Assembly (NCBI GenBank): GCA_963717295.1
Contig: OY970330.1
Span: forward strand, 2,117,902-2,181,901
DNA from: Thermoanaerobaculaceae bacterium
Lineage (GTDB): Bacteria > Acidobacteriota > Thermoanaerobaculia > Multivoradales > UBA5704
Direction of reading: 5' to 3'
DNA length: 64,000 bases
Each line of letters starts with the position of its first letter. The first letter of the stretch is position 1. The notes beneath the pieces were generated by a model. The model ran no database searches, was not told the DNA's origin, and saw only the letters and a list, made by a program, of their open reading frames with translations. Positions 10,767-56,252 of this stretch are shown one piece after another. Both the position numbers and the translations under genes were made by a program.

Positions 10767-13700
10767 AGGGCTCCGTTTCCTTCGGCATAGGCCGGGTCCT
10801 CGAGCTCCGCCAGCACCTCGAGAAGCTCCGCATTGTCGACCTGGTCGGTGATCAGATGGACGATCAGCTTCGCCAGCTCCGCGATCGTCGCGCCGACGAA
10901 GAGGCGGCTGAGCGGCACCTCGATCTGCAGCGTCTCGCGCAACCGCGAGGCCAGGTCGATCGCCAGCAGCGAATGCCCGCCGAGCTCGAAGAAGTTGTCA
11001 TGGACTCCGATCTGCTCGATGCCCAGCATCTCTTCCCAAAGGCCGGCCAGCATCTGCTCGAGCTCGCTCGACGGCGCTCGATAGGAGACCCCGACGTTGG
11101 GGCGCGGATGCCGGGTTCCTGGCGCGGCGGCTCCGGTGCGCCGGCCGGCCTCGCCGGCGCTCGCCGGCGGCCGCGCCTGCTCGCGGATCAGGGTCTCGAG
11201 GTCGACGCCCGAGACGACGATCTGCGGCCCGGCACCGCTGGCCAGGGCGCGCGCGAAGGCCTCGATCCCCTCGGCCGGCCGGATGGCGCGGCCGGTCACC
11301 GGCCCTTCGGCGGCCGGCCGGTCCGTTGCGGCGGCGGCGCGCGGCGGCGTGGCGACGTCGACCTTGCGAGCGGTGAACTCCTCGACTTCGACCAGCACCT
11401 CTCCGCTCTCGGTCAGCAGGGCGATCTCGAGCACCGCCGTATCCCCGGCCGAGAGGGCTGCGTCGACGCGAAAGTGCGCCAGCAGGCGCCGCGTGAGCGG
11501 CGCGTGCTGCCGCAGCCGCCCGTAGGAGAGCGGCAGGTAGCCCGCACGGCCGGTGAGCAGCAGACCGCACGCCGTAGCGACGTCGAGCAGCGCCGGATGC
11601 AGCCCGAAGACAGCGAGATCGCCGGCGAATGCCGGCGGCAGCTCGAGGACCGCCAATCCCTCGCCGTCGCCGACGCAGCCCTCGCGCAGCACGTCCCAGC
11701 GCGGCCCCCAGAGAGTCAGCTTCCCGCCCGCCCGCCGCTCCACCGGCAAGTCGACCACCGCGCAGCGCGCGCGAATTGCCGCCGGCTCCCGGCGCGCCGG
11801 CGCCGGACCGTCGAAGGGGAGGGCGCGGCCGGTGGCGTGAAGCCGCCAGCCTTCCCCCTTTCCATCGCGGCTGGTAATCCTGAAGGTCAGCTCCCCCGCG
11901 TGCTCGGCGAGCGCCGTGCGCACCTCCGCCTCCTCCCCCTCATCGACCGCCAGGGGGGAGAGAAAGACCGCCTCCCGCAGCTCGACGCCGGTCCCGGGCC
12001 GCTGCGCGGCTACGGCGGCCCGCGCCATTTCGAGGAGCGCCGTGCCGGGGAGGACGGGACGGCCCATCAGCCGGTGCTCGGCGAGCACCCAGTGGCGAGC
12101 TGGGGAGAGACGGAGAGCCGTCTCCATGCCGCCCCCCTCGCCGAGCAGCGGGCTCGACTCGAGGGAGGGCGCCCCCGGACGCTCCGGGCGCGCGCCGAGC
12201 GACATGCCGGTACCCTCCCAGCCATACCAGTCGAGCGCGAGAACGCTCGGCCCGCCGCGGGCCGAGCGCCAATGGGCGAAGGCGTCCAGGAAGGCATTGG
12301 CGGCGACATAGTCGACGCGCCCCAGGCCGCCGGTGATCCCGAAGGTCGACGAGAACAGGGCGAAGAAGTCGAGCGACTCACCGGCGAGCAAGGCATCGAG
12401 CACCAGAACGCCCTTGACCTTGGGGTCCAGCACAGGGCTCATCCTCTCCGCGGTCTGGCGCAGGAGCAGGCCGCCTCCCGCCGCGCCCGCGGCATGAAGA
12501 ACGCCGTGGAGGGGACCGAATCGCCGCCTGGCCTCGGTCAGGACGGCGCCCAGGGCCGCCTCGTCCGTGACGTCGGCGCTCGCCACCATGACCTCGGCGC
12601 CGGCGGCCTCGAGCTCGAGGAGCTGCCGCACCTGCTCGCCCAACGGGCCTGGGTCGTCCTGCCAGAGAGGCCAATCCCCGCGGGGCGGGAAAGCGGAACG
12701 GCCGACTAGGACCAGCCGCGCCGCGAGCTCACGCGCGAGGTATCCCGCGAAGATGAGGCCGAGCCCACCCATACCGCCCGTGATCAGGTAGGTCCCACGT
12801 TGCCGGAACGGCGGCCGCTCCGCGGCGGGGAGAGGCGCGGGCTCGAACGTCTGCACCCAACGATGGGGCCCGCGCAGGGCCACCGGCGCCCCGGGGTCGA
12901 GAGCCGAGAGCTCGGCAAGCAGCCGCGCGGCACCGGCCTCCTCCCCTCTGCCCGGTGCGGGCGAAACCACGTCGATCACCCGGCAAGCCAGCCCAGGCAG
13001 CTCCTGCGGTATGACCTTGGCGGGACCGAGCACCAGCGCCGCGGCCGGCGAGAGGGGCTCGCTCCCGTCCACGTCGAACAGTCCGCTCACCACCACGCTG
13101 AGCGCCACCCGCGCCTCCCCGCTCCGCCCCGCCAGGGCTTGGGCGAGATGCAGGAGACTGTAGAAACCGAGCGTCTCGAGCTCTTCGACAGCCTCCCGAT
13201 CGGCCCTCCCCGCCGCCTTGGCACCCGTCGCCCAGAGGTGGACGATGCGAACCAGCGCCCCACCCGCCAGCGGGAGCTCGCCGAGCAGCGCCTGGTAATC
13301 CTCCAGCCGGCGCGGGGAAAGCTCATAGGCGCCCTCGCCACGGCGGGCGAAGGCCACGCCGGGAGCCACGGTCACCACCGCCTCGCCGCGTTTTGCGAGC
13401 TCGTTGGCGAGATCACCGCCGAGACCGCCGCCGGACACGAAGAGCAGCCAGAGGCCACCCCCACCGGTGGCCAGTGCCGGCGCCGGCCGCGGCAGCCGCT
13501 TCCATGACGGGACATAGAACCAATCCGCCAGATCGGATTTGCGGCCGGCCGGGGCGGGAGCATTCGCCGGCGCGGCGGCGGCCTTTCTCTCCACCCAAAA
13601 GCGGCGGCGCTCGAAAGCGTAGGTTGGCAGCGGCACCCGGCGTCGCGACACCGGCCCTTGGAAGGCCTTCCACTCGGGCTCTACGCCGTTGGTCCAGAGC

Positions 13701-16253
13701 CGTCCGAGGGCGTTGAGCAGGGCCCGCTGCTCTTCTCCGGGCTCCCGGCTCTCGGGGAGCGAGGCCACCACCGGCCAGGCGGTGGGCACGGCGGGGTGGT
13801 TGCGCGCCAGGGTGAGCAGGGTACGCCCCGGACCGACCTCGAGCAGCGCCGCGTGCTCGAGTGTCGCGAGTGTCGCGAGGCCGGCCGAGAAGCGGACAGG
13901 GTGGCGCAGGTGGCTGACCCAATAGGCGGGGTCGGTGGCTTCCTCGGGCCGGATCCAGGCGCCGGTGAGGTTCGACACCCAGGGCAGCTGCGGGGACCGC
14001 AGGCGGATGCGGGCGAGCTCCTGGCGGAACGGCTCGAGGATCGGCTCCATCATCGCGGAGTGGAAAGCGTGCGAGGTGCGCAGACGCCGGCACCGGACCC
14101 CCCGTCCGGAAAGCGTCGCGGCGAGCTCCTCGAGGGCGTCGACGGGGCCGGAAACCGTCGACAGCAAAGGCGCGTTCTCGGCGGCCAGAGAGAGCCGGCC
14201 GCCGAGCAGCGCAGCCACCTCGGCGGCGGGGAGCGGTACGCTCAGCATGCCGCCCGGAGGCAACCGCTGCATGAGGCGTCCGCGCGCCGCGACCAGCGCC
14301 AGCGCATCCTCCAGCGAGAGCGTGCCGCCCAGGCAGGCCGCCACGTACTCGCCCACGCTGTGCCCGAGCATCGCCCGGGGCCGCACCCCCCAGGCGATCC
14401 ACTGCTCCGCGAGCGCGTACTCGACGGCGAACAGGGCGGGCTGCGCGAGCTCGGTCTCCTCGAGACGGGCGGCGGCGTCCGCGGCGTTCGACCCGTCAGA
14501 CCCCGCGCCGGGCTTCAGAAGCCGCCGCAGGTCGAACCCCAGCGATGGAGTGAGGATCTCGGAGCAGCGGTCGAAAGCCGCGCGGAAGACGGCCTCGCCA
14601 GGATAGAGGCCGCTCCCCATCTCCAGGTACTGCGCCCCCTGGCCGGGGAAGAGGAAAACGACCGGCGTGCCGGCCTCGCCGCCGATGCCTTCGATCACCC
14701 GCTTCGGATCGAGCGCGGTGAGCGCCGCCGTCGCCTCGGCGCCGCTCGCGCAAACCACCGCTCGGCGGTGCGCGAAGGCGGAGCGCCCCACCTGCAAGGT
14801 CCAGGCGACGTCGGCCAGAGCGAGCTCTGGGAGGGCGCGCAGATGCTCGGCCAGCCGATCGCTGTTGGCGGCGAGGGCACCGGCGGTCTTGCCCGAGGTC
14901 ACGAGGAGCTGCAGCGGCCGGACGGCCGGGGCGGTGGGCGCGGCGGACGGCGCCTCCTCGAGGACGACATGGGCGTTGGTTCCGCCGATCCCGAAGGAGC
15001 TGACACCGGCGCGCCGCACTCCCTTCCCGGCCGGCCACGGCCGCAGCCCGGCGTTGACGAAGAATGGGCTGGCATCGAAGTCGATCTCGGGGTTCGGGCG
15101 CTCGAAGTGGAGGCTCGGCGGCAGCCAGCCGTGCCGCAGCGCGAGCACGGTCTTGATGAGGCCGGCGATACCGGCCGCGGCGTCCAGGTGCCCGATACCG
15201 GTCTTGACCGATCCCAGGGCGCAGAAACCGCGCTTCTCCGTGCTCGCCCGGAAGACGTGGGTGAGCGCGCTCACCTCGATCGGGTCGCCGAGCGGTGTGC
15301 CGGTGCCGTGCGCCTCGATGTAGCTGATCGACTCGGGGTCGACCTCGGCCATGTCGAGCGCCTCGGTGAGGACGGCGATCTGGCCGGCGGAGCCGGGTGC
15401 CGTGTAGCCCGCCTTCAAGGAGCCGTCGTTATTGACCGCCGAGCCGCGAAGGACGGCGAGAATCGTGTCGTTGTCGGCCAGCGCTTCGTCCAGACGCTTC
15501 AGGACGACGAGACCCAGGCCGCTGCCGAAGACGGTTCCGCCGGCGCGGCTGTCGAAAGCACGGCAGTGCCCGTCGGGCGACAGGATTCCGCCCGGCTCAT
15601 ACAGATAGCCGCCGCGTCCCGGCGGCTTGACGGAGGCGCCCCCCGCCAAGGCGAGGTCGCACTGGAAGTCGAGCAGCGCCTGGGAGGCCAGGTGAACGGC
15701 GACCAGCGAGGTCGAGCAGGCCGTCTGGACTCCGATGCTCGGCCCCTTCAAGCCCAGCTTGTAGGAGATCCGCGTGCTCAAGTAGTCCTTGTCGGCGGCG
15801 ACCGTGAGCTGCAGCGACGACACCGATCGCACGAGATCCGGGTCCGACAGGATGTTCCGCAGCAGGTAGTGATTGATGCCGCAGCCGGCATAGACACCGA
15901 TCGAGCCCGGGAAGCGCGAGGACACGTAGCCGGCGTTCTCGAGCGCCTCCCAGGCGCACTCGAGGAGGAGACGGTGCTGGGGGTCGGTCAGCTCCGCCTC
16001 ACGCGGGTTGATGTCGAAGAACTCGGCGTCGAACAGCTCGACGCCGTCGATCCGTGACTCTGCCCGCACGAAATGGGGGTCACGCAGCCGGTCGGGCTCG
16101 ACCCCTGCCTGGGCCGCCTCGTCCTCCGACAGGAACGTGATCGCTTCGACCCCGTCCTTGAGGTTCTGCCAGAACTGGTCGAGCGTCGGCGCCCCGGGGA
16201 AACGCCCCGACATGCCGATCACCGCCACGGCGGGCGCGGAGCGGGGGGCCGTC

Positions 16254-38751: not shown

Positions 38752-38826
38752 GCCGACGTAGCTCAGGGGTAGAGCAGCTGATTCGTAATCAGCAGGTCGT
38801 CGGTTCAAATCCGACCGTCGGCTCCA
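38752..38826 (+). tRNA. tRNA-Thr (anticodon CGU), CCA encoded
   Basis: Manual cloverleaf: acceptor GCCGACG/CGTCGGC, D-arm GCTC-AGGGGTA-GAGC, anticodon arm GCTGA-TTCGTAA-TCAGC (anticodon CGT), T-arm GTCGG-TTCAAAT-CCGAC, discriminator T plus CCA. 75 nt. Confidence 0.85.
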
Positions 38827-44657: not shown

Positions 44658-44756
44658 TCTCGGTGCCCAGCGAAATCGCCCGGCAGTATCTATGCTACGC
44701 GAAGCTGGGGACCGGCGAGTCCCGAGCAGCCCCGGCCCAGTGGATGCTGCGCCCAA

Positions 44757-45113
44757 CGGCTCATTGAGAGGTCGCAATTCCACATTGTGAAGTCGCAACG
44801 GCTCGTTGCGAGGTCACAACGGCTCATTGAGAGCTCGCAACGGCTCGTTGAGAGGTCGCAATCCCACATTGTGAGCTCGCAATCTCAGATTGTGAGGTCG
44901 CAACGGCTCGTTGAGAGGTCACAATGTCTCATTGCGAGCTCGCAATCCCACATTGTGAGGTCGCAATCCGGGATTGCGAGGTCGCAAAGTGAGATTGCGA
45001 GGTCGCAATGCCGCAAAGAGAGCGCCCAATGCCGCAAAGCATGGCCTCAATACCGCAAAGAGTGGCTACAATACCGCAAGATGAGGACCCATCGTCACGA
45101 TGCGAGGTCCCAA
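44757..45113. repeat. Tandem array of ~17 x 21-bp repeats (consensus nnnnnnATTGnGAGGTCGCAA; the last units shift to TGCCGCAAAGnnnGnnnnCAA)
   Basis: Direct reading of the sequence: strict 21-bp periodicity with a conserved 15-nt 3' part and a variable 6-nt 5' part. Locally lower GC (~52%). Confidence 0.85.
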
Positions 45114-45825: not shown

Positions 45826-46518
45826 ATGAACACGGCAACCCGGCTGGTCTCCTCGCTCGGCTACGCCCTCTGGCGCCCCGTCCTGCGCCGGCGGCTGGGC
45901 CGCGTCTCGCTCGAAGAGATCGACGGCGTAGTTCTCATGGTGCTTCCCGAGGTCTTCAATCCGGCCGTCTATCGCACGGGCACGCTGCTGGCCCAGGCGG
46001 TCGCGGCGTGGACGCCTCCCGACGTCAGGCATTGTGAGGACATCCGGGTCCTCGACGTGGGAACGGGCAGCGGGGTCGGCTCGGTGTTCGCCGCCCGGCG
46101 GGGATTTCGGGCCGTGGCGGTAGACGTCAATCCCGAGGCGGTACGGTGCGCCCGGATCAACGCCCTTCTCCACCACCTGGAAGAACGGATCGACGTGCGG
46201 CAGGGCGACCTCTTCTCCCCGGTGGCCGGCGAGCGCTTCGATCTCGTGCTGTTCAATCCCCCCTTCTTTCGCGGCGAGCCAGCGGGCGATCTCGATCGGG
46301 CCTGGCGCGGCACGGATGTGCTGGAGCGCTTCGCCGCCGGCCTTCCCGAGGCCTTGAATCCGGACGGCACCGCTCTCCTCTGCCTGTCGACCGATGGCGA
46401 CGGCGACGCTCTGCTCGCCCGGCTGAGAGACGGCGGGTTCGGGATCGAGACGGCTGTCCAGCAAGACTTCGCCAATGAGATCGTCACCGTCCACGCGGTG
46501 CGAAGGACGGCGGCGTGA
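45826..46518 (+). CDS. Class I SAM-dependent methyltransferase (HemK/PrmC-like, NPPF motif)
   Basis: VLDVGTGSGVGSVFAA (motif I) and DLVLFNPPFF. 4-bp overlap with the next gene. Confidence 0.7.
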   Translation: MNTATRLVSSLGYALWRPVLRRRLGRVSLEEIDGVVLMVLPEVFNPAVYRTGTLLAQAVAAWTPPDVRHCEDIRVLDVGTGSGVGSVFAARRGFRAVAVDVNPEAVRCARINALLHHLEERIDVRQGDLFSPVAGERFDLVLFNPPFFRGEPAGDLDRAWRGTDVLERFAAGLPEALNPDGTALLCLSTDGDGDALLARLRDGGFGIETAVQQDFANEIVTVHAVRRTAA

Positions 46519-48020
46519 GGCGCAAGGTCCTGCTGGTCAATCCCCGAATGTGCCCTCCCAGAGCGGTACGAATGCCGCTCTCGCTCCTGTCTTTGGGCGC
46601 GGCGCTGGAGGGCGAGCACGACTACCGGATCGTCGACGGCAACGTCGATCCCGACGCCCGGGGGACCGTGCTGCGCGAGCTCGCGTCGGGAGGGTACGAC
46701 CTGCTGGGGATCACCGTCATGCCCGGGCCGCAGGTGGCGCCGGCCATCGAGATCTCGCGGGCGGCGCGGCAGGCCCGCCCGGAGGTCCCGATCGCCTGGG
46801 GCGGCTACTTCCCGACGCTCTATCCCGAGGCGGCGATCAATGCCTCCTACGTGGATTATGTGGTGCGCGGACAGGGGGAGACGACGCTTCTCGAGCTGAT
46901 GGCCGCCGCCCCGGACGCGGGCTCGGCCGTGGCCGGGATCGCCGGCCTCACCTGGAAGGACCGCGGCGAGGTGCGCCACAATCCGGACCGGCCGTTTCAG
47001 CCGGCGGACCACTTCCCTCTCCTGCCCTACGAGCGCGTGGCGGCGGACATGGACCGCTACCTGCGCCCGAGCTTCATGGGAACGCGCACCGCCGTCCACC
47101 AGGCCGCCATCGGCTGCCGCTATCACTGCACGTTCTGTGGCGTCGTCTCGATGTTCAACGGCGTGACGAAGCTGGACGCGCCGGCCCGTCTCGAAGCCGC
47201 GCTCACCACGCTACGGGACCGCTGGGGAGCCACGGCGGCGCAGTTCTACGACAACAATTTCTTCGACCGCGAGGAGACGAGCGTCCCCATTCTGGAGGTG
47301 CTGGCCCGCCTCGGCTTGCCCTGGTGGTGCTACGCCCGGGCGGACACGCTGGCCGAGTTCGCACTCCCCACCTGGGATCTGATTCGCCGCAGCCGCCTGA
47401 AGATGGCCTACATCGGCGCCGAGACGGCGAGCGACGAGGTGTTGCGGTCGATGAAGAAGGGCAGCCGCGTCTCGCACACCTTCGAGGCCGTCCGCCTCTG
47501 CCGCGCGCACGGGGTGACGCCGGAGCTTTCGTTCGTGCTGGGCGGTCCGGAAGATCCGGAGGGGGAGATCGAAAAGACTTTCGAGCTGATCAAGGGATTG
47601 AAGGCCGTGCATCCCGAGTGCGAGGTCATCCTGTATTTTTACAGCCCGACGCCCCAGCGTGACCCAACGGCGGCGGCGAATACAGCTCGCCTGCCGAAGC
47701 TGGCGCGGTACGGCCCTGAAGGGCTGGCCTTGCCGGCCACGCCGGAGGAATGGACCGAACCGCAATGGATTCGCTACGTCTGCCACCAGGACGCACCGTG
47801 GCTGACACCGAAAATCCGGCAGCGGATCGCGGACTTCTCCACCGTTCTAGGCTGCCGCTTCCCCACCGTGCAGGATTACCGGACGCCCGCCTGGGGCAAG
47901 GCGCTGTTGCGCGGGCTGGCGAGCCGGCGGTATGAAAAGGGACGGTATGACGATCCGTGGGAATTGCGGCTGGCGAAAAGGATGATTCCGTTGCGGGAGC
48001 CACAACGCGAAAGCGTGTAA
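46515..48020 (+). CDS. Cobalamin-binding (class B) radical SAM enzyme
   Basis: N-terminal B12-binding-like domain (KVLLVNPR...DLLGITVM). CxxxCxxC cluster CRYHCTFC. Confidence 0.85.
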   Translation: MRRKVLLVNPRMCPPRAVRMPLSLLSLGAALEGEHDYRIVDGNVDPDARGTVLRELASGGYDLLGITVMPGPQVAPAIEISRAARQARPEVPIAWGGYFPTLYPEAAINASYVDYVVRGQGETTLLELMAAAPDAGSAVAGIAGLTWKDRGEVRHNPDRPFQPADHFPLLPYERVAADMDRYLRPSFMGTRTAVHQAAIGCRYHCTFCGVVSMFNGVTKLDAPARLEAALTTLRDRWGATAAQFYDNNFFDREETSVPILEVLARLGLPWWCYARADTLAEFALPTWDLIRRSRLKMAYIGAETASDEVLRSMKKGSRVSHTFEAVRLCRAHGVTPELSFVLGGPEDPEGEIEKTFELIKGLKAVHPECEVILYFYSPTPQRDPTAAANTARLPKLARYGPEGLALPATPEEWTEPQWIRYVCHQDAPWLTPKIRQRIADFSTVLGCRFPTVQDYRTPAWGKALLRGLASRRYEKGRYDDPWELRLAKRMIPLREPQRESV

Positions 48021-48063
48021 TCCTGACCGGCGAATCCGCCGGAAACACGACACCGCTCCCCCC

Positions 48064-48262
48064 CAATGTAGAGACGCCCGGAGGGTAGCGCCAGCTACCC
48101 CGTGGGGCGTCTCCCGTCGGAGGCATTCCGTCAAAATACGTGAAAGATCTGAAGACCGAAAACCTTGTCTGGTCCAGGCCGTTCAGAAAACGGGGATGGC
48201 GATCCTTCGCCGGAGACGCCCCACGGGGTAGCTGGCGCTACCCTCCGGGCGTCTCTACATTG
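48064..48262. mobile_element. MITE-like element copy 1 (199 bp, 51-bp perfect terminal inverted repeats)
   Basis: TIR CAATGTAGAGACGCCCGGAGGGTAGCGCCAGCTACCCCGTGGGGCGTCTCC, inverted at the other end, around a ~97-bp core. An ~85%-identical second copy lies at 51356..51554. Flank similarity extends to ~48050..48295. Confidence 0.7.
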
Positions 48263-48284
48263 GCTGCGGTCGGCCTCCGGGATT

Positions 48285-48641
48285 TCAGACGTCTTCTAGT
48301 CGATCTTGGCTTTCTCCCTCGACGAGGGTCGCGCTCGTCAGATCCGTGCTCACCACCTCATACTCGGTCTGGCGTCCGAAGCGGATGACGTCGCCGAGCC
48401 GGAGAATGCAGCGGTCGATGCGGGCGTCATTGACGTACGTTCCTCCCGAAGAGCCGAGATCCTTCAGCACCAACTCCGCGCCCTGCCACTGGATGCGCGC
48501 GTGCCGGCGCGAGACGGCGAGATCCGAGAGGACGAAATCGCAGCTCGTCGCCCTGCCGATCTGGAGCGGCCTGTCGTCCGGCCGGATCTCACCGGTGAGG
48601 ACAGGACCGCCTCGGCGTACGAGCTTCAGCAAATACCGCAT
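48285..48641 (-). CDS. FHA-domain protein
   Basis: IGRATSCDFVLSDLAVSRRHARI...LKDLGSSGGTYVND (canonical FHA core). Confidence 0.8.
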   Translation of the reverse strand: MRYLLKLVRRGGPVLTGEIRPDDRPLQIGRATSCDFVLSDLAVSRRHARIQWQGAELVLKDLGSSGGTYVNDARIDRCILRLGDVIRFGRQTEYEVVSTDLTSATLVEGESQDRLEDV

Positions 48642-48691
48642 CTCGGATGATCCCTCCTGGAAAAGGATATTTTAAGTTATCTTCGGAATCC

Positions 48692-51325
48692 ATGCTCGCC
48701 GCCGGCACCCGACTTGGTCCCTACGAGATCCTCGCCCCGCTGGGGGCGGGCGGCATGGGGGAGGTCTACCGCGCGCAGGACCCGCGGTTGGGACGGCAGG
48801 TGGCGATCAAGATCCTGCCTCCCGAGCGCGCCTTCGATCCCCAGCGTCTCCACCGTTTCGAGCAGGAGGCGCGGGCCGCTTCGTCGCTCAACCATCCTCA
48901 CATCCTGGCGGTTTACGACTTCTGCTCCGGCTCGGGGATGTCCTACCTCGTGACCGAGCTGCTCGAGGGCGAGACCCTGCGCTCCAGGCTCCTCGCAGGA
49001 GCGCTGCCGGTGCGCAAGGCCATGGACATCGCGGTCCAGATCGCCCGCGGGCTGGCGGCGGCGCACGAGCAGGGAATCGTGCACCGGGACCTGAAGCCGG
49101 AGAACCTGTTCCTGATGCGGGATGGACAGGTGAAGATCCTCGATTTCGGTCTCGCCAAGCTGCCGCTTCCCGAATCGGCGTCCAGGCTCGCCGCGGCGAC
49201 GACCACGCCCGGCACGGAGCCGGGCGTGGTGATGGGAACGGTCGGCTACATGGCGCCCGAGCAGGCTCGCGGGCTGCCGGTCGATCACCGGGCGGACCTC
49301 TTCTCCCTGGGCGCCATCCTCTACGAGATGCTCGCCGGACGCCGGGCCTTCCAGGGGAGCTCGGAGGTCGAAGTCTTGAGCGCTATCCTCCGCGAGGATC
49401 CACCGGACCTGCAGAGCGCGGAGGGCCGGCCGGTCCCCCTGGCCGTCGAGCTCGTGGTCCGGCACTGTCTGGAGAAGGACCCCGAGGCGCGCTTCCAGTC
49501 GGCGCGCGACTTCGCCTTTGCCCTGGGTGCGCTGACCGGCTCCACGTCCAGCCTCGCCGTGGCAACTCCCGCCGCCCGGCGCAAGCGGATCGCCTGGGGA
49601 GCCGTGGCCGTCCTCTTGCTCGCACTCCTGGGCGCGGGAGCGATGGCCTGGCTCACCCGGCGATCCGACGAACGGAGGACTCCCCTCCAACTCTCCGTGC
49701 TGGCGCCGGACGGCGAGAAGCTGTACAGCTTCCCCTCCGCGGTGCTCTCGCCGGACGGCCGCCAGATCGTCCTCGTCGCCACCGGGAGCAACAGCCGGAC
49801 CCGCCTCTGGGTCCGCTCCCTGGACCACGACGATACAAGGCTACTGGACGGGACGCTCGGAGCGCGGCGTCCTTTCTGGTCGCCGGACGGGAAGGACATC
49901 GCGTTCTTCGCCGACGGCAAGCTCAAGCGGATTCCCACCACGGGCGGCGCGGTGCAGACCGTGGCGGAAGCACCCACGGGAAGCGGCGGCGCCTGGGGAC
50001 GGGACGGGACGATTCTGTTCGCGCCCACCAATATGTCGCCGCTCTGGCGCGTCGGCGCGGGCGGCGGGCGCGCGGTGCCGGTCACCCGGCTGGATCCGGC
50101 CCGACACGAAACCAGCCACCGCTTTCCAGTCTTCCTCCCCGACCAGAAGCACTTCCTCCTCTACGTGCGGACCGACGGAAGCCGCAGCGGCATCTACACC
50201 GGGACACTCGGCTCGCCGGACCTGCGCTTTCTCTCCCCCTCCTCCTCGAACGCCCTCTACGCCCCGCCGGGGTACCTCCTCTTCGTCAGCGAGGGGAACC
50301 TGATGGCCCGGCGGTTCGATGCCGGGTCGCTCGAGCTTTCAGGGGCGCCGGTCGCCCTGGCGGAGGGGATCAGCATCGAGGCCGATGCGGCCGACTTCTC
50401 GGCCTCCGCTGCGGGCATCCTGGCCTACCGCCCGGTGCCCATGATGCTCACGCAGAACCAATGGTTCGATCGCACCGGGCAGCGTCTGGGCGCGCTGGGA
50501 GAGGTGGGCTACTGGTCCAGCCCGCGGATCTCTCCGGACGGCCGGCAGGTGGCGGTGATGCGCGTGGACCCTCGGACTCAGAATCTCGGCGTCTGGCTCC
50601 TCGACGCTGTACAGGGGCAGGCACGGCTCTTCGCGGAAGCGCACCCCGGCACCTACCTCTTCCCTGTCTGGTCCCCGGATCAGTCGCGACTCGCTCTCGC
50701 CGTCGAGCGCGGAGGCGCGGCGGACCTCTATACCAAGGACCTGGATGGCGGAGCCGAGCACGCGCTGCTGGTCTCCAGCCGTTACAAGATGCCCACCGAC
50801 TGGTCTTCCGACGGCCGGCTGCTCTTCTACACGAAGTCCGACCCCGCCGGGGATTTCGATGTGGAGGCGTTGCCGCTTGCGGGCGGCCCGCCCCTCTCCG
50901 TCGTGAGCAGCCCATTCTCCGAGGGGGACACCCAGCTTTCGCCGGACGGCCGATGGCTCACCTACACCTCCGACGCCAGCGGGCGGATGGACGTCTACGT
51001 GCGTCCCTTCGCCCAGCCGGGAGCGGAGCGGGTGGTCTCGCCCGGGGGAGGATTCGGTCCGCACTGGCGGCGCGACGGCCGGGAGCTCTTCTACATCGCG
51101 CCGGACGGCCGGCTCATGGCCGTGCCCATGGCACCGGGGAAGGAGCCCGATCCATTGCCCGCCCACGTCCTCTTCGACGCGCGCCTGGGCGTCCTGCCCT
51201 ACGACCTGGCCGAGTACGACATCACGCCGGACGGCCAGCGCTTCCTCGTCAACCAGACGGTAGGCCCCCCCGCCCCCGAAGCTGTCAACCTGCTCTTCGA
51301 TTGGACGGCGAGGCTGCCGCGCTGA
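48692..51325 (+). CDS. Ser/Thr protein kinase with TM segment and C-terminal TolB-like (PD40/WD40-like) beta-propeller
   Basis: LGAGGMGEVYRA...AIKIL, HRDLKPENLFL, DFGLAK, GTVGYMAPE. TM LLLALLGAGAMAWL. Repeated SPDG blocks in the C-terminal half. Start is the probable internal Met; the ORF-track start is 48647. Confidence 0.85.
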   Translation: MLAAGTRLGPYEILAPLGAGGMGEVYRAQDPRLGRQVAIKILPPERAFDPQRLHRFEQEARAASSLNHPHILAVYDFCSGSGMSYLVTELLEGETLRSRLLAGALPVRKAMDIAVQIARGLAAAHEQGIVHRDLKPENLFLMRDGQVKILDFGLAKLPLPESASRLAAATTTPGTEPGVVMGTVGYMAPEQARGLPVDHRADLFSLGAILYEMLAGRRAFQGSSEVEVLSAILREDPPDLQSAEGRPVPLAVELVVRHCLEKDPEARFQSARDFAFALGALTGSTSSLAVATPAARRKRIAWGAVAVLLLALLGAGAMAWLTRRSDERRTPLQLSVLAPDGEKLYSFPSAVLSPDGRQIVLVATGSNSRTRLWVRSLDHDDTRLLDGTLGARRPFWSPDGKDIAFFADGKLKRIPTTGGAVQTVAEAPTGSGGAWGRDGTILFAPTNMSPLWRVGAGGGRAVPVTRLDPARHETSHRFPVFLPDQKHFLLYVRTDGSRSGIYTGTLGSPDLRFLSPSSSNALYAPPGYLLFVSEGNLMARRFDAGSLELSGAPVALAEGISIEADAADFSASAAGILAYRPVPMMLTQNQWFDRTGQRLGALGEVGYWSSPRISPDGRQVAVMRVDPRTQNLGVWLLDAVQGQARLFAEAHPGTYLFPVWSPDQSRLALAVERGGAADLYTKDLDGGAEHALLVSSRYKMPTDWSSDGRLLFYTKSDPAGDFDVEALPLAGGPPLSVVSSPFSEGDTQLSPDGRWLTYTSDASGRMDVYVRPFAQPGAERVVSPGGGFGPHWRRDGRELFYIAPDGRLMAVPMAPGKEPDPLPAHVLFDARLGVLPYDLAEYDITPDGQRFLVNQTVGPPAPEAVNLLFDWTARLPR

Positions 51326-51355
51326 TCTTGCACCCTCGCCGATACCGCTCCCCCT

Positions 51356-51554
51356 CAATGTAGAGACGCCCGGAGGGTAGCGCCAGCTACCCCGTGGGGC
51401 GTCTCCGGCGGAGACATGATCTCAAAATTACGTGGAAGATCTGAAGACCGAAAGCCCTATCTGGTCCAGACCGTTCAGAAAACGGGGATAACGATCCTTC
51501 GCCGGAGACGCCCCACGGGGTAGCTGGCGCTACCCTCCGGGCGTCTCTACATTG
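51356..51554. mobile_element. MITE-like element copy 2 (199 bp), same orientation as copy 1
   Basis: 51-bp TIRs identical to copy 1. The core is ~85% identical. Flank similarity extends to ~51342..51632 with a ~45-bp insertion in the right flank. Confidence 0.7.
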
Positions 51555-51626
51555 GCTGGCGGCGACATGGTGTCTCGTGGCATTACACCCGACGGGTCAA
51601 AACTGGCGGTCGGCCTCCAGATAATT

Positions 51627-53048
51627 TCATGACATCTCCGCCTGCGGCCACAACCAATCGCTGACCACCTTCTCCACCGGCAAGGCATACCTGTCACGTT
51701 TCAATCGCCAGCGCGCCAGGGCCCTCGCGGGGCGTGTCCAGGGCGCTCCCCGATTCCAGGCGAGGCGCTGGTAGAACTTGAAGCGCTCGATGCGGCGGTG
51801 TCTCTCAGGGCTCACCCAGGGACCGGCGGAGCCGATGAAATCGAAGCGGGCCCAGTCGTCCAGGGTGCTCGGCAGGACATAGCCGTCGCGGACGGCGTCG
51901 TCGGTCAGCGCGGAGCCGGGGTAGGGTTTGAAGTAGAAAATCGGCGTTTCGAAACCGGGCGACAGGGAACGCAGGCGCTTCGCCACGTCGAGCGAGGCCT
52001 GGACGCTCTCGTCGTCCTCTCCCGGGAAGCCGACGATGAAGGGAAAGATCACGTTCACGCCGTGGCGCAGGCACTTCTCGGCACTCTCGAAAACCTGCTC
52101 CAGCTTGATGTCCTTCTTGATGCGGTCCATCGTCGCCTGCGAGCCGGACTCGACGCCGACGATCACCCGCCTCAAGCCCGAACGCCGGCACTTCGCCATC
52201 GCCTCCTCGGAGAGCCGCGCTCCCTGGTCGGCCCGCATCGTCGCCGCCCAGGTGATCGGGATCTGGCGGCGCAAGAGCTCGTCGGCCACGGCCTCGACCC
52301 GCGGCGCGTAGGTGAAGTAGGTCTCGTCCTGAAAGGATAGATCGTCGAAGCCGTAGCGGCGATACAGCTCTTCGATCTCCTGGCCCATGCGCTCCGACGC
52401 GAGCCCGATCCATTTGCGCTTGTAGACGAACGGATCGGCGCAGAAGGCACAACGGAAGGCGCAGCCCTGGGAGGAGATGTAATCGAGCTGGCGCTTGCCC
52501 TTGAGCTCGAAATAGCGCTCGACAGGCAGCATTCGATAGTCGTGCGGACGCAGAGTGTTGAGATCGGCGAGCGGGCGGGGCGGGTTCTGGCGGATGGTGC
52601 CGTCCGCGGCGCGAACCATGCAGCCCGCGCACCCGCAAGCCGCGATGGGCTCCCCCGCCGCCAGCCGGTCGCAGATCTCGTGAAAAGTGACCTCGCCCTG
52701 AGCCTGGACGGTGACGTCCACGCTCGGCTCCTCCAGGCACTCGGTGCCGAACATCGACGGGTGCCAGCCGCCCCAGATCACCGGCAGGTCCGGCCGGTAG
52801 GCCTTGGCCGCCCGCGAGATCGCCACGGCGTCCGCGATCGGCGCGCCGGTCAACACCGTCACGCCCAGACAGAGGGCGCCATCGAGAGCCGCGAGCACGG
52901 CCCCGGCCGGATCGGCTTCGAGGCGGCCGTCGATGATCTGCACCTCATAGCGCTCGGGATCGAGATGCGAGCCCACGGCGACGAGCGCGAGCGGCATCGT
53001 GTAGAACACAGCCCGTGGGTTGTAGAGCACGACGCGATGGCGGCTCAT
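51627..53048 (-). CDS. Cobalamin-binding radical SAM enzyme (paralog of 46515..48020)
   Basis: Start MSRHRVVLYNPRAVFYTMPLALVAVG (B12-domain-like), cluster CAFRCAFC. ATGA overlap with the upstream gene. The ORF-track start at 53264 is rejected as an over-extension. Confidence 0.8.
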   Translation of the reverse strand: MSRHRVVLYNPRAVFYTMPLALVAVGSHLDPERYEVQIIDGRLEADPAGAVLAALDGALCLGVTVLTGAPIADAVAISRAAKAYRPDLPVIWGGWHPSMFGTECLEEPSVDVTVQAQGEVTFHEICDRLAAGEPIAACGCAGCMVRAADGTIRQNPPRPLADLNTLRPHDYRMLPVERYFELKGKRQLDYISSQGCAFRCAFCADPFVYKRKWIGLASERMGQEIEELYRRYGFDDLSFQDETYFTYAPRVEAVADELLRRQIPITWAATMRADQGARLSEEAMAKCRRSGLRRVIVGVESGSQATMDRIKKDIKLEQVFESAEKCLRHGVNVIFPFIVGFPGEDDESVQASLDVAKRLRSLSPGFETPIFYFKPYPGSALTDDAVRDGYVLPSTLDDWARFDFIGSAGPWVSPERHRRIERFKFYQRLAWNRGAPWTRPARALARWRLKRDRYALPVEKVVSDWLWPQAEMS

Positions 53049-54106
53049 GCGCTTCCTTCCCGTAGCGACAAAGAGCAGACACAGCGCCGGCAGATGGGAT
53101 CGCGCGCCGTGTCGAGAGTCTGGCGCCACGAGATCGCGGCCGGCGAGTTGAGAATCGCGCCCAGGCTCTCCGCATGCCTCACGTTTCCCAGCGGCGGCTG
53201 GAAGAAACAGGGGCGCACGGAGCCGTCCGCCTCGACGACGGCGGAGACCCAGGGGGCATTGCACTCAACAGGGGCGAAATCGCCTTCGGCGAGCAGGGCG
53301 GCGAAATGACGCAACAGCCGGCGCCCGAGCTTCTCCGGGCTCTCGGCGATGAAACCGCTCGCGAAGTCGGCGGCGCGCTCGATCGTCAGGGCCTCCAGCT
53401 CCGCGGCCAGAAGGGGCAGATCCTCACGGCGGAGCGCGACCTCGGCGGCGCGGTCGTCGCCCCAGCCGCCGGGACGGTTGAAGGCTTCGCTGGTGACGTC
53501 GGCGGCGAGGAAGCTCAAGCGGTCGAGCCCAAGCTCGTGGGCGGCTGCCACGGTCGCCCGCAAAACGTGGAAGTTCGGCCGCTGCACCGTGCAACGGCCG
53601 GAGACGGCGATGCCGGGACCGGCGGCGCGCACGGCGGCGACGCCCTGCGCCAGGCGGTCATAGGCACGAGGAACATCGCGGATGAGATCGTGAACCTCGC
53701 GGGGGCCGTCGAGGCTGACGACGACATCGTCGCAGACTCGGGCGAGCGCCGTGGCATCGCGGGCGAGGAGCAGGCCCGTCGAAAGGATGGTGATGCCGAT
53801 GCCCGCGTCGTGGAGATGGGCGCAGAGGTCCCAAAGATGGCTATGGAGCAGGGCCTCGCCGCCCGAGAGCACCACCCTTCGGACGCCCAAAAGCTGCCAC
53901 TCCCCGAGCCAGCGCTCCACCTCGGCCGCCGAGATCTCCTCCCGTCCCTTGTCGCGCCAGATGTCGCACATCAGGCAGCGGCAGTTGCAGCGGCTGTGAG
54001 GGTAGAGGATCAGGATGGGCAGCCGGGTCACCGGATCTTCGCGAGGCAGCGCCGGGAGAACGGGCGCGGCGACCTCCGGTCTGGGGGCGGGAGCGAGGAC
54101 CGTCAT
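53045..54106 (-). CDS. Radical SAM protein with C-terminal SPASM/twitch-like Cys cluster
   Basis: CNCRCLMC near the N-terminus (start MTVLAPAP...). C-terminal CNAPW...C...CRRCVCS. ATGA overlaps on both sides. Confidence 0.7.
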   Translation of the reverse strand: MTVLAPAPRPEVAAPVLPALPREDPVTRLPILILYPHSRCNCRCLMCDIWRDKGREEISAAEVERWLGEWQLLGVRRVVLSGGEALLHSHLWDLCAHLHDAGIGITILSTGLLLARDATALARVCDDVVVSLDGPREVHDLIRDVPRAYDRLAQGVAAVRAAGPGIAVSGRCTVQRPNFHVLRATVAAAHELGLDRLSFLAADVTSEAFNRPGGWGDDRAAEVALRREDLPLLAAELEALTIERAADFASGFIAESPEKLGRRLLRHFAALLAEGDFAPVECNAPWVSAVVEADGSVRPCFFQPPLGNVRHAESLGAILNSPAAISWRQTLDTARDPICRRCVCSLSLREGSA

Positions 54107-54870
54107 CGCCTCTCCAGCTCCAGCAGATAGTGATCGGAAAGCCAGGGCAGCGGAGGCACGGTCTCCAGCCGGCGCTCCCACTGGGCAAGGGAGGCCAGCA
54201 GGCGAGGATGGGCTTGGGCCCAGGGCTCCCACTCCGTCGGCGGCAGCAGCGCGCCGACCGCGCTCAGCCGCAAAGGGCGGAACGCGGGAGCCAAGGCGCG
54301 GCGCAGGGTCGAGGGAGCCGGATAGCGGACGGTGATGCCGCGCCATTCGACGCCGCCGCGCCGCAGCCGGCGGAAAGCCTTGCCAATCTCGCCCCGCGGC
54401 AGGAACCCCGCCCACTCCCAGGGAACGAAAGGCCCCATGACGCACAGCAGAACCGCACCGCCCGGTCGCACCAGATCGCCCAAGGTCCGCCCGAGACCGG
54501 CCAGGTCCGCCACGCAGTTGAGCCCGCCGAAATCAGAGAAGGCGCCGTCGAAGGGGCCGGAGAGAGACGAGAGATCCTCGATCGCCAGCCGCCGCGTCTC
54601 GATCCTCTCCGAAAGGCCAGCCGCCGCCACTTTGGAGCGGGCCTGCTCGATCATCGATTCCGCAGCGTCCGTCGCGACCACTCGAACGCTCCGGCGGCCC
54701 AGATGGACCGCGTCCTCGCCCGTGCCGCACGCCATCTCCAGAACGCGATCGCCGGAAGCAAATCGGGCGTCCAGTCGATGCTGTACCGCTTGGCGCAGGA
54801 GCGCTCCAAGAGGCGTGGAGGTAAAGTGGAAATCGTAACCGGCGGCCAGCGAGTCGAATCCCAGGGTCAC
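54103..54870 (-). CDS. Class I SAM-dependent methyltransferase
   Basis: VLEMACGTGEDAVHL (motif I), acidic loop VVATDAAESM. Confidence 0.75.
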   Translation of the reverse strand: MTLGFDSLAAGYDFHFTSTPLGALLRQAVQHRLDARFASGDRVLEMACGTGEDAVHLGRRSVRVVATDAAESMIEQARSKVAAAGLSERIETRRLAIEDLSSLSGPFDGAFSDFGGLNCVADLAGLGRTLGDLVRPGGAVLLCVMGPFVPWEWAGFLPRGEIGKAFRRLRRGGVEWRGITVRYPAPSTLRRALAPAFRPLRLSAVGALLPPTEWEPWAQAHPRLLASLAQWERRLETVPPLPWLSDHYLLELERR

Positions 54871-56252
54871 GCCTCCACCTCCCCCGCCAGCACCGCCATC
54901 GCCTCCCGCGCCGCCAGCGCCTCGGCCTTCTTCGCCGCCGCGAGACCCGGATCATCCATCGCGCGGTGCGCCGCCACCTCGCCGCGCAGCCAGCGGTCCG
55001 CCTGCTTGTAATAGGCCTTCGAGCGCCGGCCACGGATCGCGTAGTCGCGGTCCGTCCCGTCCTCCCAGGTTTTGGTCGCGGTCACCCGATCGGCGGCGTC
55101 CTTGAAGTAGCCGGTGTTCTTGATCGGATAGGCCACGGTGGTGAAGAAGACGTCCGGGTTCGCCTTCTTCACGTGCTCGACGGTGGCCTCCATGTCCTCC
55201 AGGGTCTCGCCCTCGTAACCCCACATGAGGAACATGCCCACCTGAATGCCGTGGCGTTGCGCGGCGTGGGTGGCCCACTGCACCTGCTCGGCCGTGACGC
55301 CCCGCTCCATGGCGTCGAGAATGCGCTGGCTGCCGCTCTCCGAGCCGATCCAGATGCGGTAGCAGCCCAGCTCCGCCAGGGTCTCCAGCACTTCGTCGCG
55401 CATCATGCGGTCAGCACGGGAAATGGTTTCGAAAGGGAGGCGCAGTCCCCGCCGCTTCAGCTCGGCCGAGTACTCGTAGAGCCACCGGTGATTGATCGTG
55501 AAGACGTCGTCCGCGTACCAGACCTGATCGGGCTGCCAGCGGTCGCGGATCTGCTCCAGCTCGCCCGCCACGTCGGCGACGCTGCGCCGGCGGTGCGTGA
55601 AGCCGAAGACGGCGTGCGAGCACCAGCGGCATTTATAAGGGCAGCCGCGGGCCGTGCTCAGATTGACGCTCCCCATGCCGTGGTGCGTGCGCCAGACTTC
55701 GACGTAACGCTGCTGATCGATCTGCTCGCGGTCGGGCCAGGGCAGCGCATCGAGATCGGCGATCTGCGTCCGCTCCGCATTGTGAACGACGGCGCCCGTC
55801 TCGTCGCGAAAGATGGTGCCGGCGACGCCGTGGAGGCGGTGGGAGCCGCGTTGCGCGAGGGCCGGCAGCAGCTCGGCCATCGTCTCCTCCCCTTCCCCGG
55901 TCACGATGACCGAGGCGCCGTGATCCAGATACTCCTCGGGATAATTGGCCGACTCGGGGCCGCCCAGCACGACCGTCCAGCCGTGATCGCGGGCGAAGAC
56001 GGCGATCTCGATCACCGGCCGCCGCGTCATCAGGTTGGTGTAGATCCCCAGGACTCCCGGTCCCTCGGCGAGACGCGCGAAGAGATGCTCGCGATTCGCG
56101 AACGTAGTGTCGAACATCTCCACGCCGAAACCTTTCTGGCGCAGGTAGGAGGAGATATAGAGCAGACCCAGCGTCGGGTACGGCTTCATGATCTCCCGCT
56201 CCTTCTCGTCCTCCGAGAGAAAGTAGCCGTGAGTGAGCAGGACGTCGGGCAT
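54867..56252 (-). CDS. Cobalamin-binding radical SAM enzyme (subtype with N-terminus LLTHGYFL..D.KE...M.PYP.LGLLY)
   Basis: B12-binding-like N-terminal domain. Cluster CPYKCRWC. Radical SAM core GSESGSQRILD. Confidence 0.85.
   Translation of the reverse strand: MPDVLLTHGYFLSEDEKEREIMKPYPTLGLLYISSYLRQKGFGVEMFDTTFANREHLFARLAEGPGVLGIYTNLMTRRPVIEIAVFARDHGWTVVLGGPESANYPEEYLDHGASVIVTGEGEETMAELLPALAQRGSHRLHGVAGTIFRDETGAVVHNAERTQIADLDALPWPDREQIDQQRYVEVWRTHHGMGSVNLSTARGCPYKCRWCSHAVFGFTHRRRSVADVAGELEQIRDRWQPDQVWYADDVFTINHRWLYEYSAELKRRGLRLPFETISRADRMMRDEVLETLAELGCYRIWIGSESGSQRILDAMERGVTAEQVQWATHAAQRHGIQVGMFLMWGYEGETLEDMEATVEHVKKANPDVFFTTVAYPIKNTGYFKDAADRVTATKTWEDGTDRDYAIRGRRSKAYYKQADRWLRGEVAAHRAMDDPGLAAAKKAEALAAREAMAVLAGEVEA

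Follow-up and report, generated by a model that had tools for sequence, protein, structure and literature searches.

REP hairpins form on single-stranded DNA. In known systems an HUH tyrosine transposase (RayT or TnpA-REP), supplied in trans from a single-copy gene, binds and cuts REPs at a GTAG foot, and an autonomous hairpin with such a foot is a hallmark of Y1-transposase substrates. Classical REPs measure 20-40 nt and REPINs about 110 nt. Among described systems, the GTAG REPs of TnpA-REP/RAYT subclass 2.4 (Quentin et al. 2018, PMC6006769; Di Nocera et al. 2013, PMC3733652) come closest to two elements, A and B, that lie in the 64-kb stretch of DNA analysed here (the window). A rule set for 'long hairpin' REPs with an internal bulge of 1-3 nt is given in PMC6006769, and the GTAG tag of REPs is described in PMC3733652. 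Further points of comparison are the REPINs (Bertels and Rainey 2011, PMC3116915; PMC3337134), the BIMEs (bacterial interspersed mosaic elements) of E. coli and bacterial MITEs such as Nezha, RUP, NEMIS/Correia and ERIC. We consider it probable, at roughly three chances in four, that each terminal inverted repeat of A and B is a GTAG-tagged long-hairpin REP and that two such REPs in inverted orientation make up each 200-bp unit, a doublet of the REPIN/BIME kind, an estimate that also covers the mobility and duplication proposed below.

The two elements are about 200 bp long each, have the same orientation with a start-to-start spacing of 3,292 bp and enclose a pair of genes. The gene content, two B12-binding radical SAM proteins, an FHA protein and a Ser/Thr kinase, is as the first-pass annotation had described it and agrees with Pfam matches. 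The features are as follows.

46572..48020, plus strand: rSAM1, B12-binding radical SAM protein of 482 aa, left neighbour, convergent with the FHA gene; 100% identity to P0121
48040..48284, plus strand: element A, full extent including the imperfect outer family ends (left ...ACGACACCGCTCCCCCC; right GGCTGCGGTCGGCCTCC...)
48063..48114, plus strand: left arm of A, REP-type hairpin with the GTAG foot at 48068-48071
48115..48211, plus strand: core of A, 97 nt, less G+C-rich
48212..48263, minus strand: right arm of A, exact reverse complement of the left arm of A
48285..48641, minus strand: FHA-domain gene, 118 aa, cargo between A and B; Pfam FHA 2.9e-21
48692..51325, plus strand: Ser/Thr kinase with PD40 beta-propeller, 877 aa, cargo; Pfam Pkinase 6.7e-49; 100% identical to P0241
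51333..51626, plus strand: complete element B, with its outer ends and an additional segment of about 47 nt
51356..51406, plus strand: left arm of B, REP-type hairpin, same sequence as the arms of A
51407..51503, plus strand: core of B
51504..51555, minus strand: right arm of B
51627..53051, minus strand: rSAM2, B12-binding radical SAM protein of 474 aa, right neighbour, convergent with the kinase gene

Identity between the two radical SAM proteins is only 28%, and the FHA gene is divergently paired with the kinase gene in all orthologous loci. The hairpin part of A (48063-48263) is made of two 52-nt arms that are 100% complementary and separated by 97 nt. That of B (51356-51555) has arms of 58 nt, 98% complementary and 83 nt apart, in which the 52-nt arm sequence of A recurs. 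This sequence is identical in all four arms, each of which forms a hairpin by itself. The window contains exactly four occurrences of the 43-nt hairpin GAGACGCCCGGAGGGTAGCGCCAGCTACCCCGTGGGGCGTCTC, against none in 100 shuffles, while foot and stem together, GTAGAGACGCC, are found there solely at the four arm sites. Repeat finding together with the shuffles confirms the initial description of two direct-orientation elements of about 200 bp with identical, self-folding inverted arms. An origin by chance or by an assembly artefact in the window was considered and rejected, because orthologous copies occur in independent assemblies. A 3.1-kb short-read contig of the source genome ends inside the left arm of copy A. 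Neither element has coding capacity, and no transposase is encoded by them.

From 5' to 3', the GTAG foot of an arm is followed by a 9-bp basal stem (GAGACGCCC/GGGCGTCTC), a 3x4 internal loop and an apical part consisting of a 7-bp second stem (GGGTAGC/GCTACCC) and the 4-nt loop GCCA. The foot is present in all four arms of the window, and its final G is the first base of the stem. REPs have a tetranucleotide, GTAG or GTGG, at a distance of 0-2 nt on the 5' side of their hairpin. They are also imperfect palindromes in which a paired, G+C-rich basal stem of 7-20 bp may be topped by a bulge with another stem, and the loop measures 2-5 nt; the window arms show both features. This anatomy matches the long-hairpin rules of PMC6006769 and the GTAG tag of PMC3733652 and was counted in favour of a REP identity: GTAG foot, paired G+C-rich basal stem, internal bulge or loop, second stem and short loop are shared. 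Deviations from the long-hairpin REPs concern the internal loop, which measures 3x4 nt here instead of being a 1-3-nt bulge, the last base of the foot, which can pair, and the length, which is 43-52 nt for the arms, more than in classical REPs, and about 80-90 nt with imperfect outer and inner extensions. A single arm, taken as single-stranded DNA, has a predicted folding energy of -18.2 kcal/mol on its own (z-scores -5.9 and -4.9). For the whole unit, in which the two inverted arms can pair into one hairpin as in REPINs, the values are -168 to -172 kcal/mol and z about -13; the predicted structure is extremely stable on either strand. The cores of A and B, with fold z-scores of -1.6 and -2.4, have no significant structure of their own.

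The cores are identical at 85 of 97 positions, in keeping with the roughly 85% noted at first. Over the whole element, A and B share 91% identity with each other, compared with 82% or less with copies at unrelated loci. The core motifs CTGAAGACCGA and CCAGAnCGTTC..GAAACGG..GGCGAyCCTTCG are common to copies at unrelated loci. The full extent of A was derived from alignment with copy B, the orthologous copy L155 and the unrelated-locus copies L131, L164, L165 and L177. Similarity past the inverted repeats had been annotated on both sides; on the left it holds, over about 15 nt, and on the right it holds as well, up to the stop codon (TCA) of the neighbouring minus-strand gene in both copies. In copy B it resumes only after the extra segment of about 47 nt (about 51563-51609), which is bounded by a CTGGCGG direct repeat and carries CCGACGGGTCAAAAC, a motif that lies directly outside the right arm in L126, L131, L162 and L165. 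Outer motifs of the form CGAyACCGc..CCAGCCAATG and CATTGGCTG..CGG are common to A, B, L155 and the copies at unrelated loci. Since these motifs recur at unrelated loci, the flank similarity is no proof that non-element DNA was duplicated, and this interpretation was rejected; judged from the alignments, most of it represents the family's own extended, imperfect ends.

A census was performed in related soil-metagenome contigs, which are 83-93% identical to the window at orthologous loci. The arm pattern was found at 68 loci with 112 arms in total, 108 of which carry the GTAG foot. The elements had been thought to be a repeated non-coding family bounded by inverted repeats, and this is borne out; uniqueness to the two positions in the window, named beforehand as grounds for refutation, does not apply given these 112 arms in relatives. 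Note that the census figures describe related populations, while the window's own genome contributes four arms within 64 kb. Contigs of 100 kb or more, 2.9 Mb altogether, hold about 33 long-form arms, roughly one per 90 kb. Almost all arms are extragenic (88 of 90 outside GC3-supported open reading frames), and the flanking genes are mainly convergent or co-directional (14 convergent, 25 tandem, 2 divergent). Extragenic siting of this kind is typical of REPs, and the family shares with GTAG REPs its multi-copy nature, as counted in these related populations, the preference for sites downstream of genes and the occurrence as monomers, inverted dimers and clusters. Neither Rfam, at gathering or permissive thresholds, nor a viral sequence collection yielded a match, to the elements and to the arm, respectively.

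With regard to pairing, the census contains 21 doublets in (+-) and 11 in (-+) orientation, i.e., 64 of the 112 arms are paired, and 48 (about 43%) are unpaired, some of the latter sitting at locus edges. The build is mosaic, with one and the same arm found next to several distinct interior sequences. A looser pattern than that of the census, which fixed the stems, revealed four or more apical modules on the same foot and stem, each of them able to fold. Arms are exchanged independently of cores: L127 and L173 have cores that are 99% identical, whereas the apical modules of their left arms differ. In the window, likewise, core differences of 12-16% contrast with four identical arms. An Acidobacteriota MAG locus (L065) has the same architecture as A and B, with CAATGTAGAGACGCCCCGTGGGGCGTCTCC, a 61-nt core and an inverted arm. 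In being non-autonomous and multi-copy, and in having the same variant on both arms of some doublets, the family resembles REPINs. Compared with REPINs, the doublet has roughly double the length (200-250 nt) and contains a conserved core of about 97 nt; its arm also turns up in combination with other cores, in pairs of the opposite orientation and, frequently, as a singlet. Furthermore, REPIN doublets are the replicating unit and outnumber singlets, whereas the doublets described here, with both orientations and several cores, are not clearly commoner than single arms. The alternating-orientation mosaic of REPs with a small set of conserved linkers, intergenic and at gene ends, is reminiscent of E. 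coli BIMEs, a likeness drawn from sequence; the sequences themselves are unrelated, and the linkers are longer here.

The foot and stem GTAGAGACGCC is also found in and around RayT-like genes of other genomes, a further likeness to GTAG REPs. Out of 119 loci picked solely by GTAGAGACGCCC...GGGCGTCTCTAC, 25 carry a RayT-like open reading frame with the palindromes inside or beside it. This fraction overstates the general association with RayT, because the cross-phylum pattern, which required two 'feet' and does not match the window's own arms, favoured double palindromes within RayT genes. The RayT-like proteins reach 61-68 bits with the NCBIfam model REP_Tyr_transpos, and their match to Pfam Y1_Tnp is borderline; their homologues are named 'REP element-mobilizing transposase RayT' in the source records. 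Loci combining foot and stem with a RayT-like gene span several phyla, and one of them, MAG locus L062, is acidobacterial. In RayT-like genes of other genomes, REPs are inserted in frame between the HUH and Tyr motifs. Placed in the usual VETP frame, a long-form arm would bring in a stop codon, and peptides encoded by it were not present in 120 RayT homologues. REPIN-RAYT systems have a single-copy RAYT gene that the same REPs flank. Here, neither the 64-kb window nor 0.5 Mb of related contigs yielded a RayT-like gene, and none of the best 120 homologues of an acidobacterial RayT resides on the 8.78-Mb contig that holds the window. The cognate enzyme of the family is therefore unproven, in contrast to the RAYT partner of REPINs and GTAG REPs, and the arms in the window may be orphan REPs.

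The junction between rSAM1 and rSAM2 differs in content among relatives. In L189 it is empty, and the two genes are 10 nt apart. In L148/L134 a single doublet alone resides between them, and the FHA-kinase cargo is absent. In L190, L191 and L195 other cargo is present, without such arms at its boundaries; in L195 it lies between two copies, 97.5% identical, of 449 bp from the 3' end of rSAM2, so direct repeats around cargo arise here without REPs. L200, a close relative, retains rSAM1, FHA and kinase genes, while the hairpin part of copy A is gone. FHA-kinase orthologues with 76-77% identity are located at unrelated loci without arms (L197-L199). From these comparisons the junction presents itself as a hypervariable insertion spot. 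The existence of junctions without the module, along with the orthologues elsewhere, indicates that the FHA/kinase pair was very probably inserted between the two convergent radical SAM genes, and to this extent the original proposal of an insertion into a radical SAM locus, including the comparison with insert-free relatives that it called for, has held up.

If A and B are REP doublets, the following course of events can be envisaged. A RayT acting in trans in the source genome would mobilise the hairpins, and gene conversion would exchange them between copies; owing to both processes the family would persist as tens to about a hundred intergenic copies, mostly downstream of genes. The FHA/kinase pair would have translocated into the hypervariable junction between the two radical SAM genes, where most likely one doublet was already resident, as in L148/L134. 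This doublet may have been duplicated by homologous (Campbell-type) recombination upon arrival of the module or by local copying afterwards, leaving two sister copies in the two convergent intergenic regions that now flank the FHA/kinase pair.

In principle, the same arrangement could be explained by A and B being the ends of a composite, transposon-like cassette that moved either by transposition or by excision of a circle and its re-integration through doublet recombination. Two direct sister copies do flank the cargo, they resemble each other more closely (91%) than any copy at an unrelated locus (82% or less), and they share an uncommon GGA variant of the internal loop. The one-doublet state of L148/L134 and the empty L189, both without the cargo, and the FHA-kinase orthologues at other loci would also fit. 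However, a composite transposon consists of two autonomous IS and is found as a unit at different sites, whereas A and B encode no transposase and cargo plus doublets were seen at this junction alone; a second locus with the same cassette and doublets was not encountered, and the distant FHA-kinase loci are free of arms. L200 keeps the module without the hairpin part of copy A, and other cargo occupies the junction without such arms at its boundaries, flanked in L195 by the rSAM2 duplication instead. Nothing shows that A and B moved the cassette, and the composite-transposon-like delivery suggested by the first-pass annotation is unlikely. Equally doubtful is a related idea that treats the doublets as portable homology: a circle of FHA-kinase and one doublet would have recombined with the resident doublet, and REPINs would then serve as a 'cassette shuttle' for signalling modules in Thermoanaerobaculia.

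A and B might also be elements selected for a host function, i.e., stabilisers of 3' ends, bidirectional terminators or insulators, or sites for nucleoid proteins. Each lies between the 3' ends of a convergent pair of genes, the family is rare in divergent promoter regions, as the gene orientations in the census illustrate, and the structure is extremely stable on either strand. Roles of this type are described for E. coli REPs in PMC3733652. Against this speaks that a promoter and terminator scan of both strands from 47500 to 52200 returned no terminator-like site. The arms are followed by CCGTCGG or CCGGCGG, and a T/U tract is absent, so A and B contain no canonical intrinsic terminator. In addition, there is no Rfam match, and relatives function with a 10-nt intergenic region or without copy A. 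As a sole explanation, a selected host function is thus quite improbable; it is compatible with a REP origin and not an alternative to it.

Similarly improbable is that A and B are classical MITEs, internally deleted DDE-type IS mobilised in trans by a full-length IS with the same terminal inverted repeats: they are short (200-250 bp), non-coding, intergenic and numerous, bear long terminal inverted repeats and, like bacterial MITEs, have strong RNA/DNA secondary structure, but no direct repeat that could represent a target-site duplication adjoins the ends of the window copies or the unrelated-locus copies, no parent IS with matching ends is present in any fetched locus, about 43% of the arms stand alone, the orientation is reversed in 11 pairs, arms are exchanged irrespective of the cores, and every arm folds into a hairpin by itself and has a GTAG foot. 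The label 'MITE-like', which the elements had initially received, is better replaced by REP/REPIN/BIME-type in view of the foot, the self-folding arms, the many singlets, the occurrence of both pairings, the lack of a detectable target-site duplication and, in the loci retrieved, of an IS with matching ends.

Taken as GTAG-tagged REP doublets, the elements extend REP/REPIN-type repeats of this class to Thermoanaerobaculia (Acidobacteriota), a phylum not named for GTAG REPs in PMC6006769 or PMC3733652. Pairs of REPs account for the breaks and fold-backs of short-read assemblies at this locus, and they call for caution in annotation, as REP pairs around genes should not be read as transposons. 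The junction offers a natural allele series, comprising an empty state, one doublet, two doublets with cargo, and cargo with one hairpin deleted, which could be used to study rearrangements promoted by REP doublets. On this reading, A and B are an ordinary kind of bacterial repeat that belongs to a multi-copy family in Thermoanaerobaculia. This family is unusually large and modular: foot and basal stem are constant, apical hairpins can be exchanged, and there are several conserved types of core. The rapid swapping of apical modules on a fixed GTAG and basal stem might, at a low probability, represent a so far undescribed, RayT-templated process of conversion.

The first-pass annotation had described two inverted-repeat elements on either side of an FHA gene and a Ser/Thr kinase gene (the FHA-kinase module). 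Copies A and B were confirmed in their hairpin arms, their direct orientation (spacing 3,292 bp) and their 97-nt cores, which are identical at 85 of 97 positions. The neighbouring genes also match the earlier description, and the convergent B12-binding radical SAM genes on the outside, rSAM1 and rSAM2, encode distant paralogues (28% protein identity).

46572-48020, plus strand: rSAM1
48063-48263: copy A, two 52-nt arms, 100% complementary, 97 nt apart
48285-48641, minus strand: FHA gene
48692-51325, plus strand: Ser/Thr kinase gene
51356-51555: copy B, same arms as copy A; 58 nt, 98% complementary, 83 nt apart
51627-53051, minus strand: rSAM2

Within the window, the four arm sites account for every occurrence of the arm's 43-nt hairpin core (chance expectation 0) and of GTAGAGACGCC. 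A single arm folds as ssDNA with -18.2 kcal/mol (z about -5 to -6) and the whole unit with about -170 kcal/mol (z about -13); the core folded alone gave no significant structure. Copy B is accompanied by an extra segment of about 47 nt (51563-51609), edged by the 7-nt direct repeat CTGGCGG, which is missing from copy A and from the element at the related locus L148. The segment carries GGTGTCTCG and CCGACGGGTCAAAAC, both of which adjoin arms at other Thermoanaerobaculia loci.

Read 5' to 3', the arm is CCAAT-GTAG-AGACGCCC-GGA-GGGTAGC-GCCA-GCTACCC-CGTG-GGGCGTCT-CC. The GTAG foot is followed by a G+C-rich basal stem of 9 bp, an internal loop and a second stem of 7 bp that closes a 4-nt loop. This fits the 'canonical long' REP (repetitive extragenic palindrome), in which a 7-20-bp basal stem, with GT[AG]G at 0-2 nt on its 5' side, is connected through a small bulge to a second stem (PMC6006769), and also the GTAG-tagged REP super-family (PMC3733652). 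Two REP units in inverted orientation constitute a BIME/REPIN-type dimer (PMC3116915, PMC3337134).

The repeat unit is not a local pair. When the stems alone were fixed, the arm pattern was found in 68 stretches of soil metagenomes, mostly long contigs from two samples, and the contigs with arms are 83-93% identical to the window at orthologous loci. A looser definition yielded 112 arms in these 68 loci and the window, 108 of them with the GTAG foot, which form 21 hairpin-type (+-) and 11 (-+) doublets and leave 48 arms unpaired. One and the same arm is joined to several unrelated interior sequences, and the apical part above an unchanging foot and basal stem comes in at least four modules (GGGTAGCGCnAGCTACCC, GGGGAACCCC, CCGGAGGGAACCTCCGG, CAGTCCG...GGACTG) or is absent; every variant folds. 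Arms lie outside GC3-supported ORFs in 88 of 90 cases, and their flanking genes are convergent (14), tandem (25) or divergent (2), which is the distribution reported for REPs (PMC3733652). The same layout is seen in L065, an Acidobacteriota MAG, where the arms are short and the core measures 61 nt. The doublet class of A and B recurs at the unrelated loci L131/L162, L164, L165 and L177, and these copies carry the very motifs that had been taken as similarity of the flanks. The similarity is thus present but mostly represents the family's own ends, which reach, imperfectly, about 25 nt past the perfect repeat. No target-site duplication was visible at any copy examined. The window also contains a 21-nt tandem array (44754-45079, about 12-15 copies of CAATGGCTCATTGAGAGGTCG with a small CAATG...CATTG palindrome inside), homologues of which adjoin REP arms in L128, L139, L151 and L184; in L128 and L184 an arm stands on each side.

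The window's relatives, which are Thermoanaerobaculia, differ in what lies between rSAM1 and rSAM2.

States of the rSAM1/rSAM2 junction
L189: 10-nt spacer
L193: 135-nt spacer that contains a GTAG palindrome other than the window's, GTAGGGGCGGC...
L148/L134: a single doublet, whose left arm is of the short form and whose core is longer
L191: a single gene, function not assigned
L190: two small ORFs
L195: four genes (one Peptidase_C70) between 449-bp direct duplicates of the rSAM2 3' end, 97.5% identical
Window and L155: FHA-kinase module with doublets

FHA-kinase orthologues with 76-77% identity reside at unrelated loci devoid of arms. Together with the states in the relatives, this indicates that the module was most probably inserted into the junction, as had been proposed, and that the junction is a general hot spot. 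The duplicates in L195 (8821-9269 and 12123-12571) demonstrate that long direct repeats can enclose cargo at this site in the absence of REPs. The GTAG-footed long palindrome TTTGTAGGGGCGGC...GCCGCCCCTACAAA of a Thermoanaerobaculia MAG (L193 8570-8670, also L194) differs from the window arms, a sign that a second REP family may have colonised the junction independently. The surrounding region (45826-56252), like L189 and L193, holds conserved methyltransferases, several B12-binding radical SAM genes and a radical SAM/SPASM gene, and looks like a biosynthetic cluster, possibly of RiPP type.

Both copies predate the separation of the window's lineage from L155, where A is present, and from L127, L173, L200 and L187, where B is. 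The two are mutually closest, with 91% identity versus at most 82% to other copies. Core A is 84% identical to core B versus 72% to its own orthologue in L155, which hints at conversion between the two copies. In L127 and L173 the cores are 99% identical and the left-arm apical modules differ. In these two and in L200, B is followed by a 45-nt rSAM2 remnant and then by unrelated DNA; in L200 this DNA (10086-14154) encodes a weak match to DDE_Tnp_1 and an integrase of phage type, which suggests that a larger mobile element disrupted the radical SAM cluster there. In L176 (1-420) and L187 (215-420), parts of the locus are replaced by tandem arrays of a second type, whose units, for example GGAGTCGCTCCGCACCCTTAC, measure about 21 nt. 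The array adjoins a half core beside rSAM2 in L176 and the final ~75 nt of the kinase gene in L187. Note that L155, a 5,147-bp metagenome contig, is a fold-back in which 37-2600 and 5127-2687 match one window region in opposite orientations, and that L188, a 3,139-bp short-read contig of the source genome, stops within the left arm of A; both look like assembly failures due to the hairpin repeat.

A link to transposases emerged from a scan with the genome-wide pattern GTAGAGACGCCC...GGGCGTCTCTAC, which does not match the single-foot arms of the window and is biased to intragenic double palindromes. It hit at least 119 loci in Bacteroidota, Chloroflexota, Patescibacteria, Gemmatimonadota, Acidobacteriota and other phyla. 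With this bias, homologous ORFs of some 190 aa that carry HUH and Tyr motifs were present in 25 of the 119 loci listed; they score 61-68 bits against the NCBIfam model 'REP-associated tyrosine transposase' (RayT; family cut-off 80) and are borderline for Pfam Y1_Tnp; homologues are named RayT in their sources. The palindromes adjoin the RayT-like genes and also sit in frame within them, separating the HUH from the Tyr motif; the in-frame ones encode VETPRRGVST-like peptides with both halves co-changing. Such in-frame GTAGAGACG...CGTCTCTAC palindromes occur once to several times per gene in many phyla (proteins P0001-P0120; loci L002, L033, L040, L045, L052, L054, L058, L062, L063, L087, L094, L095, L113 and others), and paired changes in peptide variants (VETPRRGVST, VETSRRDVST, VETTRRVVST, VETGRRPVST) preserve the DNA palindrome. 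They correspond to the intragenic in-frame REP palindromes described by Quentin et al. for TnpA-REP subclass 2.4 (PMC6006769) and are therefore already known. For the window lineage, neither the window nor 0.5 Mb of related loci yielded a RayT, and none of the best 120 homologues of an acidobacterial RayT lies on the 8,777,251-bp contig that holds the window and carries P0121 and P0241, which are 100% identical to the window's rSAM1 and kinase proteins, respectively.

In principle, A and B could be the ends of a composite transposon that carried the FHA-kinase module, as the first-pass annotation had suggested. Two observations count against such delivery: L200 keeps rSAM1 and the FHA-kinase module side by side although the hairpin part of A is lost and only its outer motifs remain (...CACCGTCGCC|CATTGGCTGGCGG...), and other lineages have REP-free cargo at the same junction. 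This explanation is weakened and has a low probability, and the initial interpretation as a whole is partly supported. The elements have no Rfam match; in the window, only a tRNA gene (38752-38823) passes the gathering threshold. They had also been considered candidate bidirectional terminators; neither copy contains a canonical terminator, and REPs in general may plausibly act as terminators or stabilisers. The best-supported reading is that A and B are sister copies of a REP-doublet family residing in both convergent intergenic regions around the inserted FHA/kinase pair, where the second copy may have arisen by Campbell-type recombination involving a doublet already resident there, or by subsequent local copying.
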